Shown here one piece after another: positions 50,632-58,163 of a stretch of DNA of 64,000 nt. The notes under the pieces are model-generated. The model was given only the letters and a program-made list of their open reading frames with translations. It did not search any database and had not been told where the DNA came from. Within the stretch, counting starts at the first letter, position 1; every line of letters begins with the position of its first letter. Position numbers and translations under genes: made by a program. The stretch lies in IMG/VR virus record IMGVR_UViG_3300009285_000002; one strand, written 5' to 3'. The DNA is from a virus. Its lineage: Duplodnaviria; Heunggongvirae; Uroviricota; Caudoviricetes.

Positions 50632-50705
50632 GCCGTCGTAGCTTATGTGGAAAAGCGGGAATTTTGTAAATTCCAGACAGTGGGTTCGACTCCTCACCGA
50701 TGGCT
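50632..50705 (+). tRNA. tRNA-Thr(TGT)
   Basis: Hand-folded: acceptor GCCGTCG/CGATGGC, D stem GCTT/AAGC, anticodon stem GGAAT/ATTCC with loop TTTGTAA, and T loop GGTTCGACTCC. No encoded CCA. Confidence 0.55.
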
Positions 50706-50709
50706 CTAT

Positions 50710-50782
50710 TATCCCGTAGTTCAGATGGAAGAACGCTTGTCTTTGAAACAAGAGGTCGGATGTTCAAATCATTCCGGGATAG
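50710..50782 (+). tRNA. tRNA-Gln(TTG)
   Basis: Acceptor TATCCCG/CGGGATA, D stem GTTC/GAAC, anticodon stem CTTGT/ACAAG with loop CTTTGAA, and T loop TTCAAAT. Confidence 0.55.
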
Positions 50783-50787
50783 CTAAT

Positions 50788-50859
50788 GCTCTTATCTTAT
50801 AGTGGCTAATAAACTAGACCCTCAATCTAGTAACTTGGGTTCAATTCCCAATAAGAGCA
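50788..50859 (+). tRNA. tRNA, anticodon uncertain (loop CCCTCAA, read as CTC/Glu)
   Basis: Acceptor GCTCTTA/TAAGAGC, D stem TTAT/ATAA, anticodon stem CTAGA/TCTAG, and T loop GGGTTCAATTCCC. Position 33 is C. Confidence 0.4.
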
Positions 50860-51118
50860 CAGAGGTAAATATGATTACTAAAATACTAAATGGAGTTATC
50901 TGGTATGATTACAAAGGTGATGAAATCTGTTGGAATGGGGGGGGGGTATATATCCCTTCTTTGTGAGGGGGAGTTTGACTCTCTGGAAGAAATGGATCAA
51001 TTTTGGGAAGACTATGGTAACAGTTTTCGTAGACAGGAAATATAGGTAACTAAAGATATGGCTATGGATGCTGGAGACTTATTCCTTGAAGGACAAATCT
51101 GGCAGTGGTAGCACAAAT

Positions 51119-51191
51119 GCTCTCTTGGTCTATTGGCTAAGACGCCTCCCTTTCAAGGAGGAAACAGCAGGTTCGATTCCTGTAGAGAGCG
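51119..51191 (+). tRNA. tRNA-Glu(TTC)
   Basis: Acceptor GCTCTCT/AGAGAGC, anticodon stem CCTCC/GGAGG with loop CTTTCAA, and T loop GGTTCGATTCC. Confidence 0.55.
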
Positions 51192-51257
51192 CTAGTAGGT
51201 TCTGTGTCAAGGGAGATACGGACGTAAGATAGGCAAACACTCCTCTGCCTACAATAT

Positions 51258-51330
51258 GTTGGATATGGTATATCGGAATTATGTCTACCTGTGAAGTAGA
51301 AGAGCTGGGTTCAACTCCCAGTATCCAACC
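51258..51330 (+). tRNA. tRNA-His(GTG)
   Basis: Acceptor GTTGGAT/ATCCAAC, anticodon stem TCTAC/GTAGA with loop CTGTGAA, and T arm CTGGGTTCAACTCCCAG. The D arm is weak. Confidence 0.45.
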
Positions 51331-51341
51331 ATATAAAATAT

Positions 51342-51413
51342 TGTCCTATAGCTCAATGGTGACCCTTCGCTCTGTTAAAGCGAAGGTTCGTGGTTCAAGT
51401 CCACGTAGGACAG
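51342..51413 (+). tRNA. tRNA-Asn(GTT)
   Basis: Acceptor TGTCCTA/TAGGACA, anticodon stem TCGCT/AGCGA with loop CTGTTAA, and T arm CGTGGTTCAAGTCCACG. Confidence 0.5.
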
Positions 51414-51537
51414 CTAAATCCAGTGGCATGTGGTTGTAAAGATGATATTACAAGCGGCCATGCTAAAAAATAAAAGAGCCGTACATACTCGGCACTGGAT
51501 TTTATTACCCCATAGCTCAACTGGAAGAATATAAACT

Positions 51538-52047
51538 ATGAGAAGAAGAACAAATCCATTATATAATATAGATAAGCAAACTCTATTAGACGCTGTGATA
51601 AATAGCAAGTCAATAGCAGAAGTCCTAGATAGATTGAATGTACCTAGATTTATTGGTAGTAGCTATGAAATATTTAGAAACCTATGCAAAACTTATGACC
51701 TTACTGATGAATTCAGAAAGCTAAAAGATAGAAGTAAGGAAACAATAAAGAAGCAGGTAAGTCATGTCGGAATAAAATACTCGCTAGATTATATATTAGT
51801 AGAAAACAGTACTTACAAGAGTAGAACTGAGCTAAAGAAAAGGCTGGTGAATTGTGGTATGCTAGTTAATAGGTGTAATATATGTAGTTGTGATCCAATA
51901 TGGAATGGAAAGAACTTAGTATTTATACTTGACCATATAAATGGGATTCATAACGATAACAGATTTGAAAACCTACAACTGGTGTGTCCAAACTGCAACA
52001 GTCAACTTAGTACATTTTCTGGAAGGAACAAAAAATACAAGCATTGA
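51538..52047 (+). CDS. HNH homing endonuclease
   Basis: C-terminal CNICSC...ILDHINGIHNDNRFENLQLVCPNCN HNH/Zn motif. The gene sits inside the tRNA array and its stop codon overlaps the 5' end of the next tRNA. Confidence 0.6.
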   Translation: MRRRTNPLYNIDKQTLLDAVINSKSIAEVLDRLNVPRFIGSSYEIFRNLCKTYDLTDEFRKLKDRSKETIKKQVSHVGIKYSLDYILVENSTYKSRTELKKRLVNCGMLVNRCNICSCDPIWNGKNLVFILDHINGIHNDNRFENLQLVCPNCNSQLSTFSGRNKKYKH

Positions 52048-56003: not shown

Positions 56004-56097
56004 CAAGCAAAGTACTTTGCTAGGAATATGTATGTACATGGGAAGGCTGAAACACTTTGACCCGTTGCCGGATACCATATCTCTGCATATTCCGTAC

Positions 56098-56172
56098 GCA
56101 AGCGTGAAGGGAATTGGCATACCTACTAAGCTCAAAACTTGGTGCATATTGGTTCAAATCCAATCGCTTGCA
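56098..56172 (+). tRNA. tRNA, anticodon uncertain (loop CTCAAAA read as CAA, but type-I length)
   Basis: Acceptor GCAAGCG/CGCTTGC and T arm ATTGGTTCAAATCCAAT. Anticodon stem CTAAG/CTTGG. Confidence 0.4.
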
Positions 56173-56247
56173 CAATGTACGTGTGTAGAGGTTCGATTCC
56201 TCTAAAAGTTGGTCAGGCACTATACTATCGTAGGTAACGTACATTAT

Positions 56248-56330
56248 GCTCTTGTGGCGGAACTAGGCAGACGCTGAGGACTTAAAATCCCCTTCCTTCG
56301 GGAGTGTGGGTTCGATTCCCACCTTGAGCA
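56248..56330 (+). tRNA. tRNA-Leu(TAA)-like, possibly impaired
   Basis: D region TGGCGGAACTAGGCAGACGC closely matches E. coli tRNA-Leu. Anticodon loop CTTAAAA, variable arm TCC-TTCG-GGA, and T arm GTGGGTTCGATTCCCAC. The acceptor GCTCTTG/CTTGAGC has two U:U mismatches. Confidence 0.4.
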
Positions 56331-56359
56331 CACTATAAAACAGTAAAAGGAGATAAAAA

Positions 56360-56575
56360 TTGACATCTATAGAATTCAAACTTAGCATCAAGCAATCAGT
56401 AAAAATAACCAATATTAACACTTTGGGTACAGTAATTGGCTACTATGTAGGTGATTCTGGTATTCAATACCAGGTTGCATATTTCTTAAATGGAGAGCGT
56501 AAAGTTATGTACCTATACGAAGAAGAGTTGGGAGATCCTAAAGAAGATACTGGGATTGGGTTTATTACTAAATAA
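56360..56575 (+). CDS. hypothetical protein
   Basis: TTG start with an AAAAGGAGATAAAAATTG ribosome-binding site. 71 aa. Confidence 0.35.
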   Translation: MTSIEFKLSIKQSVKITNINTLGTVIGYYVGDSGIQYQVAYFLNGERKVMYLYEEELGDPKEDTGIGFITK

Positions 56576-56713
56576 TAAAGGACACCGAGACATGATAAAA
56601 AGAATATTATGTGGTACTACAACTGAAAATGATGTATGGGGGGTGTTTTTCTATCTATTTATAGCACTTGCACTTGGCATACTTATAGGCTCTCTTTGAC
56701 GGTAAATTGCCTA

Positions 56714-56742
56714 TTGACAAATAGCATTAACTATGATATAAT
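56714..56742 (+). promoter_or_regulatory. sigma70-consensus promoter
   Basis: CTATTGACAAA context, 17-nt spacer, TATAAT at 56737-42. It lies in an AT-rich ORF-free stretch upstream of the 57152 gene. Confidence 0.55.
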
Positions 56743-57151
56743 ATGTATAAATTAAGCACTTGACATGGTGTTTATCCTAGGTTACTAGACCTTAATAACT
56801 AGCTCACTACCTACGAGTGGAGATGAGTATGAATGAATCCAATCACGGACATTCCTCTTCATAATGGCTAACTCGCTATCTTAATTTTGTTCGTGAATAG
56901 AAACTAGCGCAGCTTAGTTCTATTCAACTTACCTATTCATAAAAGGGGAAGATTAAACTAAATTTCTTTAGAGATTTTCTTAAGTACTTAAACATTAAAC
57001 CTTAAGAGCATATCTCCTAAACAATCTAACGATTGTTTATTAGAATTGTTAGATAATAGATTAGTAGCTAAGTAACATAATAAACAGTTAACTATATCTA
57101 ATACATATGTAAATTCTTGAACGAAAACCATTAATATACAAAAGGATAAAA

Positions 57152-57925
57152 ATGAGCATTCCAAAAGGCATTATGAATAGCAATAAGTATCTTGGAGATA
57201 GATCAATTCTATTAGCATATAGAGGAAGCATTGCTCACGGGATGTACATTCCTAACTCCGATCCAAACTCAATTGATGATAAGGATATTATGGGGGTATG
57301 TGTTCCATCAGTGGATTATTACTTCGGAATAGAGCATGATTTTCCATTCAATGGTACACAGGAAATCAAAAAAGATGAATGGGATATAGTAATCTATGAA
57401 GCAAAGAAGTTCATTGGTCTATTAGCTAAAGGAAATCCAAATGTACTTTCAATGCTATGGTTGGCAGACAACTACTATCTGAAGACTACGGATGCAGGAA
57501 AGCTTCTTATAGAGAATAGAAATCTCTTTGTCGGTAGACATGTATATAAATCATTTACTGGATACGCTTATAGTCAGCTTCACAGAATGACTCATGGCGG
57601 AGCGTATAATGGCCACGCTTCTGCAAAGAGAAAAGAACTCGTACAAAAATATGGCTATGACTGTAAGAATGCAGCGCATCTAATTCGATTACTTAGAATG
57701 GGAATTGAGTTCTTAAAGGACGGTGAGCTATCTGTTTTAAGGGAGGATGCAAGCCAGTTGCTAGAAATAAAGAGAGGCGAGTGGTCTCTTGAACAAGTAC
57801 AAAAGGAAGCAGAGCACGGATTTAAATTATCTGAGCAGGCATATATTAATTCCACGCTCCCAAAAGCACCTGATCTGACTGCCATAAATTCATTATGTGT
57901 GGAAATAGTAAGGATGTCATTATGA
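57152..57925 (+). CDS. Pol-beta-superfamily nucleotidyltransferase (RlaP-like RNA-repair NTase candidate)
   Basis: N-terminal RGSIAHGMYIPNSDPNSIDDKD carries the GS...D.D nucleotidyltransferase signature, followed by a helical C-terminal domain. It sits just after the main run of tRNA genes, with tRNA-Pro just downstream. Confidence 0.45.
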   Translation: MSIPKGIMNSNKYLGDRSILLAYRGSIAHGMYIPNSDPNSIDDKDIMGVCVPSVDYYFGIEHDFPFNGTQEIKKDEWDIVIYEAKKFIGLLAKGNPNVLSMLWLADNYYLKTTDAGKLLIENRNLFVGRHVYKSFTGYAYSQLHRMTHGGAYNGHASAKRKELVQKYGYDCKNAAHLIRLLRMGIEFLKDGELSVLREDASQLLEIKRGEWSLEQVQKEAEHGFKLSEQAYINSTLPKAPDLTAINSLCVEIVRMSL

Positions 57926-58083
57926 CAAGATATTGGAAGCTAATTGGTTCTGAAAGAGTTATAGCTATAGATATAGAAGTAACTATGTCTCCTAGATGGG
58001 AAGTAGTTAAGGAAGAAGACTATCTTGAGTACAAGAAAAAGAAATTGGCCGGGGAAATAAAGGAAGATGTAGAATTAAAATAG
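57922..58083 (+). CDS. small acidic/basic protein
   Basis: ATGA overlap with the upstream gene. It is an internal start of track ORF 57895-58083. Confidence 0.3.
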   Translation: MTRYWKLIGSERVIAIDIEVTMSPRWEVVKEEDYLEYKKKKLAGEIKEDVELK

Positions 58084-58089
58084 ATTTAT

Positions 58090-58163
58090 ATAGGTGTGGC
58101 TCAACCCGGTAGAGCGCGGCGTTTGGGACGCTGAGGCTGTAGGTTCAAATCCTATCACCTATA
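58090..58163 (+). tRNA. tRNA-Pro(TGG)
   Basis: Acceptor ATAGGTG/CACCTAT is a perfect 7 bp. D stem GCTC/GAGC, anticodon stem CGGCG/CGCTG with loop TTTGGGA, and T arm GTAGGTTCAAATCCTAT. Confidence 0.55.

Follow-up and report, generated by a model that had tools for sequence, protein, structure and literature searches.

A tRNA gene array from an uncultured phage lineage, with a probable initiator-type tRNA-Met and a candidate rearranged tRNA-Arg

The subject of this report is an array of tRNA genes in a 64,000-nucleotide (nt) stretch of viral DNA (IMG/VR record IMGVR_UViG_3300009285_000002), referred to below as the window. Two members of the array receive most attention: a gene for a tRNA-Met(CAU) with features of an initiator, at 55197-55268, and an element at 52901-52974 that is a putative tRNA-Arg(UCU) of rearranged architecture. 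The proteins encoded in the window include a family A DNA polymerase, a RecA/UvsX-type recombinase, a primase, DNA methyltransferases and virion proteins, and its apparent origin, as part of the genome of an uncultured phage, is supported. The identical gene set occurs on contigs from groundwater metagenomes, the longest of 89,059 bp, giving a phage of ~89 kb. In the sequenced-phage collection the DNA polymerase has no counterpart above about 30% identity, so that no close sequenced phage is available, and at the nucleotide level the 8-kb array region gave one 54-nt match to sequenced phages and nothing else.

With default settings ARAGORN found 20 tRNA genes; they span 50632-58164, all on the + strand, and the rest of the window gave none. 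Its structures were used to read the anticodon loops, the ends and the 1:72 pairs. Nineteen of the 20 passed the gathering score of the Rfam tRNA family (RF00005), the exception being tRNA-Met at 55197. From 5' to 3', with some of the Rfam scores in brackets, the genes are Thr(UGU) at 50632-50705 (46.5 bits), Gln(UUG) at 50710-50782 (65.5 bits), Glu(CUC) at 50788-50859 (59.7 bits), Glu(UUC) at 51119-51191, His(GUG) at 51259-51329, Asn(GUU) at 51342-51413, Gln(CUG) at 52045-52115 (67 bits), Ser(GCU) at 52152-52237, Arg(ACG) at 53564-53635 (54.3 bits), Ala(UGC) at 54097-54167, Trp(CCA) at 54271-54339, Lys(CUU) at 54351-54426, Ile(UAU) at 55038-55110 (67.2 bits), Met(CAU), Gly(UCC) at 55339-55409, Tyr(GUA) at 55749-55835, Leu(UAG) at 55920-56003, Leu(CAA) at 56098-56172 (31.6 bits), Leu(UAA) at 56248-56330 (40.5 bits) and Pro(UGG) at 58090-58163 (64.9 bits). 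No CCA is encoded after any of the 20, as an earlier reading of the letters, made by hand and called here the sequence-only reading, had said; C74 alone is present in 19. A C directly after the discriminator, never CCA, is also found in the tRNA genes of relatives, and may be what remains of CCA or else serve as a processing signal.

Two further + strand features failed both default ARAGORN and RF00005. One is the element at 52901-52974. The other, a marginal tRNA-Ser(UGA) at 52321-52405, was reported by ARAGORN at -ps80 only and gave 25 bits (E = 0.17) with the Rfam tRNA-Sec model; it has a perfect 7-bp acceptor, a good anticodon arm and a weak D arm, and is syntenic with Ser(UGA) of the relatives. 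With these two the count is 22, in line with the number (about 22) folded by hand, and ARAGORN, which had been proposed as a check, gave 20 rather than far fewer. Very probably the locus is a functional, vertically inherited cluster in which 20 canonical tRNAs are joined by a rearranged tRNA-Arg(UCU) and a marginal tRNA-Ser(UGA). The array is of a known and ordinary kind, here from an uncultured phage lineage.

Orthologous arrays were reached by exact-protein look-ups of homologues of the adjacent DNA polymerase, which led to related contigs of about 87-90 kb. A metagenome scan with the PolA alignment was rejected as a route; it returned only ~30% identical relatives, and the back-translated motifs were generic. 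The same gene order is present in the arrays of five relatives (L009, L010, L094, L096 and L097), whose polymerases are 46-75% identical to that of the window and whose arrays hold 15-27 tRNAs each. In its tandem one-strand tRNAs, small open reading frames (ORFs) and homing endonucleases, in its bias towards anticodons for phage-preferred codons, and in the fast turnover of content between relatives, the array resembles those of large lytic phages (T4, T5, Felix O1-like Ounavirinae, mycobacteriophage cluster C and Streptomyces BE/BK). It differs from them in that no cultured relative was found, and in the lack of CCA from all genes with retention of C74 in 19 of 20.

Codon use was determined over 53 ORFs. 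ATA accounts for 46% of Ile codons, AGA for 49% and AGG for 21% of Arg codons, CCA for 53% of Pro codons and GGA for 35% of Gly codons; the A-ending codons CTA, TTA, ACA and GCA are also favoured, and decoders for them are in the array. These figures are consistent with an array that supplies the phage's own codon demand, the measure being phage codons and not those of a host, and the codon-usage compensation suggested in the sequence-only reading holds to that extent. The array would then keep late translation independent of the host tRNA pool. Perfect matches to sigma-70-type promoters were found on the + strand at 56714 and 58301 and on the - strand at 49122, with near-perfect ones at 49022 and 53886. 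These matches, which lie on either side of the array and within it, point to a conventional bacterial RNA polymerase, and the sigma-70 enzyme of the host probably transcribes the tRNAs together with the small ORFs. With no CCA in any of the genes, maturation would depend on the host for RNase P, for 3' processing by an endonuclease and for addition of CCA by the CCA-adding enzyme. The divergent promoters at 49122 (-) and 49022 (+) lie just before the array, where the direction of the genes changes from leftward to rightward.

A role in countering tRNA damage, alongside codon supply, is suggested by circumstantial features of the locus. Inside the array of the window, and also in that of L097, is the gene for an RlaP-family nucleotidyltransferase (57152-57925, +; PF10127, 72.4 bits, E = 6e-20; PHROG 388, E = 2e-51). 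RlaP has been described as a repair nucleotidyltransferase of phages that is associated with RNA ligases (PMC7824862). The window also encodes, outside the array, an RNA_ligase-family protein of 206 aa (25312-25932, +; PF09414, 31.3 bits, cut-off 27); the two genes are 31 kb apart, not adjacent, and this protein is a possible RNA-repair partner of RlaP. A 472-aa protein with a DUF2828/DUF7788 domain match is encoded at 26960-28378 (+), and its homologue lies within the tRNA array of L009, L010 and L097; a link to RNA handling is a guess from this gene context. PDB sequence searches with the RlaP and DUF2828 proteins gave no match, nor did a comparison of the DUF2828 protein with NCBIfam.

The second such feature is the nucleotide at position 33. 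Three tRNAs had been named as having C rather than U there, and exactly these three do: Glu(CUC) at 50788 (loop CCCUCAA), Arg(ACG) at 53564 (loop CCACGGA) and Met at 55197 (loop CCCAUAA). Of the 133 tRNAs read from this phage family, 11 have C33, and the isoacceptors concerned vary from phage to phage. By the same reading method it was seen in 2 of 182 cellular tRNAs and 0 of 88 from other phages, and relative to this baseline of 2/270 it is enriched both in the family (Fisher p = 1.5e-4) and in the window (3/20, p = 2.6e-3). Other normally universal positions vary too: a base other than U stands at position 55 in 18 of 132 family tRNAs (10/27 in L096 and 5/16 in L009) and at position 8 in 19 of 133. 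The change at position 55 is mostly to C (TCCGA in place of TTCGA in the T loop), with C55 in 5/16 tRNAs of L009, in 9/27 of L096, where there is one further G55, and in none of the window, compared with 2 of 181 cellular tRNAs; this position is normally invariant and pseudouridylated, and the change looks specific to the lineage.

It could accordingly be argued that the array is mainly an anti-defence device, in which tRNAs are altered at nuclease sites (C33 and the rebuilt core of tRNA-Arg), so that anticodon nucleases of the host, or defences that deplete tRNAs, fail to halt phage translation, and repair is provided by RlaP and the RNA ligase. The C33 enrichment and the presence of the RlaP, RNA_ligase-family and DUF2828 genes are what such a device would display, initiator and arginine tRNAs are known nuclease targets (of VapC and colicin D, for example), and phage tRNAs with anticodon-loop substitutions at nuclease cleavage sites have been reported (PMC10264068). 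That paper proposes evasion through the substitutions and does not mention position 33. The window shares with the nuclease-evading phage tRNAs (T5; PMC10264068; evasion of PARIS and retrons, PMC11464382 and PMC11555353) its non-consensus anticodon loops and RNA-repair genes in one genome; it differs from them in having no nuclease or cleavage site assigned. Against this reading, C33 is scattered over isoacceptors among the relatives, the Met orthologue of the closely related L009, nearly identical to that of the window, has U33, no nuclease has been shown to depend on U33, and no defence system or host has been identified. The C33 of the window Met is therefore a recent, derived U-to-C change, and since positions 55 and 8 are relaxed as well, the enrichment fits weak constraint at least as well as evasion of a nuclease. 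The anti-defence idea of the sequence-only reading thus keeps its circumstantial basis (RlaP in the array, the RNA-ligase-family gene and C33), with drift at least as likely, and as the main purpose of the array we consider it possible but on the doubtful side. It is compatible with codon supply and not an alternative to it. C33 in the three tRNAs would be tolerated, and may or may not confer resistance to anticodon-loop nucleases.

The element at 52901-52974 (+) had been listed, from 52896, as a degenerate tRNA. This was wrong; the element belongs to a conserved, covarying family. Its order is a 7-bp acceptor, a UA+N linker, a 9-bp hairpin with three bulged bases and the loop CUUCUAA, an unpaired stretch GCAUAAUGGAUAAU, the T arm and, as discriminator, U. 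Across the family, whose members are of full length (74-79 nt), the 3' part consists of a single-stranded GCAUAAYGGA..AU, a 5-bp T arm with its T loop, and the discriminator, and CCA is encoded in many members. The D hairpin (10-13 with 22-25) is absent, with 5 nt between the acceptor and the long helix. The number of pairs in the long hairpin equals that of a D stem stacked on an anticodon stem, and its outer pairs (12:45 and 13:44 in the alignment designated A7) are long-range and covary, one being U:A in 39 sequences and C:G in 4, the other G:C in 41 and U:A in 2.

A covariance model (R1) built from 12 members scored the family at 59-96 bits, the window copy at 92, three divergent copies at 44-50 and canonical tRNAs at 32 or less. 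In A7, which contains 44 distinct sequences, 94.6% of cells are paired and 19 of 21 pairs have changed on both sides, compared with 35-45% pairing in slid controls. It weighs against these covariation counts that A7 was itself fitted to the model. With MAFFT, which gave an independent alignment, pairing is 96.4%, and 30-42% in the slid controls. The acceptor is 97.7% paired and the T stem 100%, 11 of their 12 pairs have changed on both sides, and the T loop is of the GTTCRA type. The single-stranded segment 3' of the long helix contains a near-invariant GGA, and the AAUGGAUA stretch recurs as the D loop of tRNA-Arg(ACG) in the same array. One identity element for bacterial arginyl-tRNA synthetase (ArgRS) is A20 of the D loop. 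We infer that the function of the D loop may have moved to the position of the variable region. In such an architecture the D and anticodon stems would be fused, forming a single continuous hairpin of 9 bp, and a D-loop-like GGA would follow it.

Several other descriptions of the element were considered and rejected. A 4-bp D-like hairpin (GCAU...AUGY) could be drawn after the anticodon hairpin, but its 3' strand belongs to the T stem, both sides of which covary, and the alternative pairing fails in one member; it was therefore discarded. The standard-order cloverleaf that ARAGORN offers for one member, with a tiny D arm, a GAG/UAG anticodon and A33, is not supported by covariation and fails in NiceHouse and L097. 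Simple orthology to the canonical tRNA-Arg(UCU) of the relatives was ruled out by alignment. Rfam has no family for the element, its tRNA-Sec model giving 20.9 bits against a gathering score of 47, and membership of the allo-tRNA or tRNA-Sec-like class (8/4 or 9/3) was rejected in view of a 7/5 branch and an unpaired variable-region segment. Two 70-nt tRNA-like sequences, in L008 (7337-7406) and L093 (1244-1313), have a normal acceptor, a T arm and a AUAAUGGA segment around an 18-nt central hairpin with no recognisable anticodon loop; they score 30-32 bits with R1.

A 45-nt core of the element is 100% identical in the Pseudomonas phage vB_PsaM_M1, in which the acceptor and T stems differ yet still pair. 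Searches by BLAST and pattern scans found further members, usually in tRNA arrays, in 26 Streptomyces phage records, the Rhodococcus phage NiceHouse, two Alishewanella phages and many IMG/VR viral contigs; plasmid and E. coli genome collections gave no match. In GenBank the element is mostly unannotated; it appears once as tRNA-OTHER, twice as tRNA-Ser and once under a hypothetical protein. The anticodons of the 44 members are UCU (30), CCU (6), UCG (4), ACG (3) and UAU (1), so that 43 are arginine anticodons, from both codon boxes, and every new member from a scan that left the 21 nt of the hairpin unspecified also had an arginine anticodon. Fifteen loci have a member of the family together with canonical Arg tRNAs, and in 14 of them the two types share no anticodon. 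The element of the window takes the slot of the relatives' canonical tRNA-Arg(UCU) and is the window's only UCU decoder. The UAU member (L094, 2258-2334; 47 bits) lies in the slot of the relatives' canonical tRNA-Ile(UAU), so the rearranged architecture may not be strictly limited to arginine.

Rather than a tRNA, the element might be a tRNA-like decoy or a regulatory RNA, such as bait for a nuclease of arginine tRNAs or a processing signal. It has no D hairpin, it is missed by ARAGORN and by the Rfam tRNA model, it stands unannotated in most of the phage records that contain it, and bait for an arginine-specific enzyme would likewise retain an arginine anticodon loop. A decoy is harder to reconcile with variation among four arginine anticodons that complement the canonical Arg tRNAs. 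Nor would it readily account for conservation of the 7/5 acceptor branch and the T loop, for the CCA that many members encode, or for an anticodon branch that keeps the canonical length of 9 bp. The arginine anticodons, the complementarity in 14 of 15 loci, the position as sole UCU decoder and the 70% share of AGA and AGG among Arg codons lead us to expect a charged, decoding tRNA-Arg, by which those two codons would be served, and we consider a decoy unlikely.

In the tRNA reading the element would be a new structural variant, common to dozens of otherwise unrelated phages. The full proposal is of an undescribed structural class of tRNA with a fused hairpin and a moved D-loop function, charged by ArgRS, used on the ribosome and spread among phages of Actinobacteria and Proteobacteria; taken as a whole we hold it to be evenly balanced between right and wrong. 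No description of such a rearranged tRNA-Arg family was found in the literature, the search having covered open-access papers only, so that an earlier description is possible. Like the mitochondrial tRNAs that lack a D arm and the bacterial allo-tRNAs (PMC7609411, PMC5389517), the phage family keeps the acceptor/T branch and the anticodon loop and abandons the cloverleaf. Unlike the allo-tRNAs, with their 8/4 or 9/3 branch, it has a 7/5 branch; at 74-79 nt it is of full length and not miniaturised; and it is further set apart by one long helix with long-range closing pairs, a tie to arginine and a D-loop-like AAYGGA in the place of the variable region.

If the element is charged and decodes, then RNase P, ArgRS, EF-Tu and the ribosome accept a core connectivity unlike the universal cloverleaf, which would be useful to know for tRNA identity and tRNA engineering. 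Standard tRNA finders would then also be systematically missing an AGA/AGG decoder in many phage genomes. As that decoder is missed, and is unannotated in most records, analyses of phage codon use against tRNA content would be distorted. The design has possibly spread because a rebuilt core escapes a host factor that recognises the normal core of tRNA-Arg; the element is a concrete candidate for rebuilding of the tRNA core by phages against tRNA-directed immunity.

The tRNA-Met gene at 55197-55268 (+) has U1 and U72 unpaired, followed by G2:C71, C3:G70 and G4:C69, with A73 as discriminator. Its anticodon stem is closed by G29-G31:C39-C41 above the loop CCCAUAA, and A11:U24 is present in a 4-bp D-stem reading, an assignment that depends on the register of the D arm. 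The purine11:pyrimidine24 pair A11:U24 is a feature of bacterial initiators. The sequence-only reading had called this tRNA initiator-like on two of these grounds, the unpaired 1:72 and the GGG/CCC run, and both are there in the ARAGORN structure. A 1:72 mismatch, G2:C71/C3:G70 and the anticodon-stem G:C pairs are established hallmarks of initiators and of recognition by the formyltransferase Fmt (PMC5389676). Seven syntenic orthologues were aligned (window, L009, L010, L093, L094, L096 and L097). In this alignment 91.8% of cells are paired, as opposed to 34-52% with slid partners, and 13 pairs have changed on both sides, while pairs 2-5 and G30:C40 are invariant. The 1:72 position is U/U in the window, L009, L010, L093 and L094 and A:U in L096 and L097, never G:C; A11:U24 is A:U in four of the seven. 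Among the 133 tRNAs of the phage family a true 1:72 mismatch is confined to the Met genes, and GGG/CCC is found in three Met genes (window, L009 and L094) and one Ser. The other orthologues have au/GC/GC, GC/GC/gu or GC/GC/cg, the first two of which are natural variants of cellular initiators (PMC5389676).

Several observations weigh against an initiator. The three G:C pairs are not kept in every orthologue. The window Met departs from normally invariant positions with G8, C33 and A53:U61. It was not reported by the Rfam tRNA model even at E<=10, and with a profile of 59 bacterial initiators it scored 11.3 bits, between Pro (13.4) and Asn (10.7) of the same array; the top match to this profile was the syntenic Met of L010, at 28.6 bits. 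The initiator-type call is based on the hallmark features and their conservation, not on overall similarity: every hallmark that can be read from sequence is present and conserved in orthologues, and it is the general likeness to cellular initiators that is too weak for classification. The gene is probably that of a functional initiator-type tRNA. It would be charged by MetRS through CAU and A73, formylated owing to the unpaired 1:72 with G2:C71/C3:G70, and placed in the P site through G29-31:C39-41.

The same CAU tRNA might instead be an elongator tRNA-Met or a lysidine-modified tRNA-Ile2. It is the sole CAU tRNA in the array and internal ATG makes up 2.3% of codons, its overall likeness to cellular initiators does not set it apart, A1:U72 is found in two orthologues and the full GGG/CCC is missing from some. 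The unpaired or weak 1:72, G2:C71/C3:G70, A11:U24 and the invariant G30:C40 are initiator features, however, two of the stem variants of the orthologues (au/GC/GC and GC/GC/gu) match those of cellular initiators, and it is a syntenic Met that tops the initiator profile. A lysidine tRNA-Ile2 is not needed, because a tRNA-Ile(UAU) is present in the array. We think the elongator or Ile2 assignment quite improbable.

An initiator-type tRNA in a phage is not in itself rare. E. coli tRNAfMet matches 307 sequenced phage records, including those of Mycobacterium, Caulobacter, Lak and Vibrio phages, in which the copies are usually annotated as plain tRNA-Met. With bacterial tRNAfMet and these phage copies the window Met shares CAU, A73, the lack of a strong 1:72, G2:C71, C3:G70, A11:U24 and three G:C pairs. 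It differs from bacterial tRNAfMet in having U1/U72 in place of C1/A72, as well as in G8, C33 and A53:U61, and it is too diverged to stand out by BLAST, Rfam or the initiator profile. BLAST of the Met against sequenced phages gave no match, and exact-pattern scans of IMG/VR and JGI metagenomes were likewise empty.

C33 is found in cellular initiators as well; in eukaryotes it is known from the cytoplasmic initiators of plants and some fungi. A survey for GGGCCCAUAACCC in the context of a tRNA, with each prokaryotic species represented by one genome, found at least 120 stretches, and at least 108 of at least 123 matches were inside ARAGORN calls of tRNA(CAU), most with typical initiator acceptors. 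Among the matches listed, C33 tRNA(CAU) occurs in Planctomycetota, Leuconostocaceae, Erysipelotrichaceae, Patescibacteria, uncultured Gammaproteobacteria and several archaeal groups. These have the same GGGCCCAUAACCC anticodon arm as the window Met; in them C33 looks fixed by lineage, whereas in the window it is recent and is accompanied by C33 in two elongator tRNAs, Glu(CUC) and Arg(ACG). Phage initiators and C33 initiators are thus both commoner than the sequence-only reading had presumed. The initiator-type tRNA, the array and C33 are variations on known themes, the initiator and C33 being of modest interest. Two cellular C33 initiators (L137 and L190), one of them from a Candidatus Ratteibacteria metagenome-assembled genome (MAG), share U1/U72 with the phage Met; the pair is C1/U72 in Planctomycetota and A1/A72 in several Patescibacteria and Gammaproteobacteria MAGs. 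These 1:72 states might help to narrow the host.

It weighs against a functional, inherited cluster that the array is eroding: only two tRNAs are left in L008 and one in L012, and Val, Phe, Asp, Cys, Lys-UUU and Ile-GAU, present in the arrays of relatives, are lacking in that of the window. The weakest of the alternatives goes further and takes the oddities as decay, with C33, the Met deviations, Ser(UGA) and the mismatched Leu(UAA) neutral or slightly harmful changes in genes under weak selection and the Met perhaps a non-functional relic; these gaps, a tRNA-Ile fragment in the window, the failure of Rfam on Met and the wide variation of universal positions across the family would agree with it, but it is very unlikely, as the Met cloverleaf is kept by compensatory changes in seven phages with its unusual 1:72 conserved, the C33 elongator tRNAs otherwise score 54-60 bits with Rfam, the Leu(UAA) mismatch is conserved and not random, and the element at 52901 is under strong purifying selection in phages of different bacterial phyla. 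The Leu(UAA) gene at 56248 had been noted for U:U mismatches in the acceptor, which are indeed present (U5/U68 and U6/U67), and described as degenerate, which does not hold: the 6:67 pyrimidine mismatch recurs in L010, L094 and L096 and is therefore a conserved feature and not decay.

Some smaller observations concern the array and its surroundings. In the 75-nt tRNA-Leu(CAA) a 5-nt variable region replaces the long variable arm of bacterial Leu tRNAs; L010 and L097 have Leu(CAA) orthologues of similar length, and the Leu(UAA) of L097 is likewise short. T-arm-like hairpins between the tRNA genes were compared with the family tRNAs and gave no match except the Ile fragment, a 27-nt partial copy (92.6%) of the 3' end of tRNA-Ile(UAU) at 53025-53051 (+). 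An HNH endonuclease ORF of 169 aa (51538-52047, +; PHROG 10822, E = 2e-32; weak Pfam HNH_3) lies within the array. Directly upstream of it, at 51500-51537, is a stretch that resembles a tRNA 5' half (ACCCCATAGCTCAACTGGAAGAAT), and its stop codon overlaps the first bases of tRNA-Gln(CUG) (52045-52047); together these suggest that the endonuclease was inserted beside or into a tRNA gene. The perfect promoter at 56714-56742 (+; TTGACA-17-TATAAT with a TG-extended -10) is upstream of the RlaP gene, and between the two, within 56700-57150, there are about 400 nt with no convincing ORF, perhaps a leader or non-coding RNA. The family A DNA polymerase next to the array (58541-61189) has 882 aa, its close homologues all have 625-635 aa, and these align to only about 45% of the window protein, in one segment. 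An insertion of ~250 aa between the exonuclease and polymerase parts is indicated by the shorter homologues and the one-segment alignment; it showed no intein or endonuclease domain against Pfam at E<0.01. Away from the array, the genes at 29791-40830 have amidoligase, class II and class I glutamine amidotransferase, peptidase C26 (twice) and phiEco32-like COOH-NH2 ligase domains, and are predicted to form a module for small-molecule or peptide modification.

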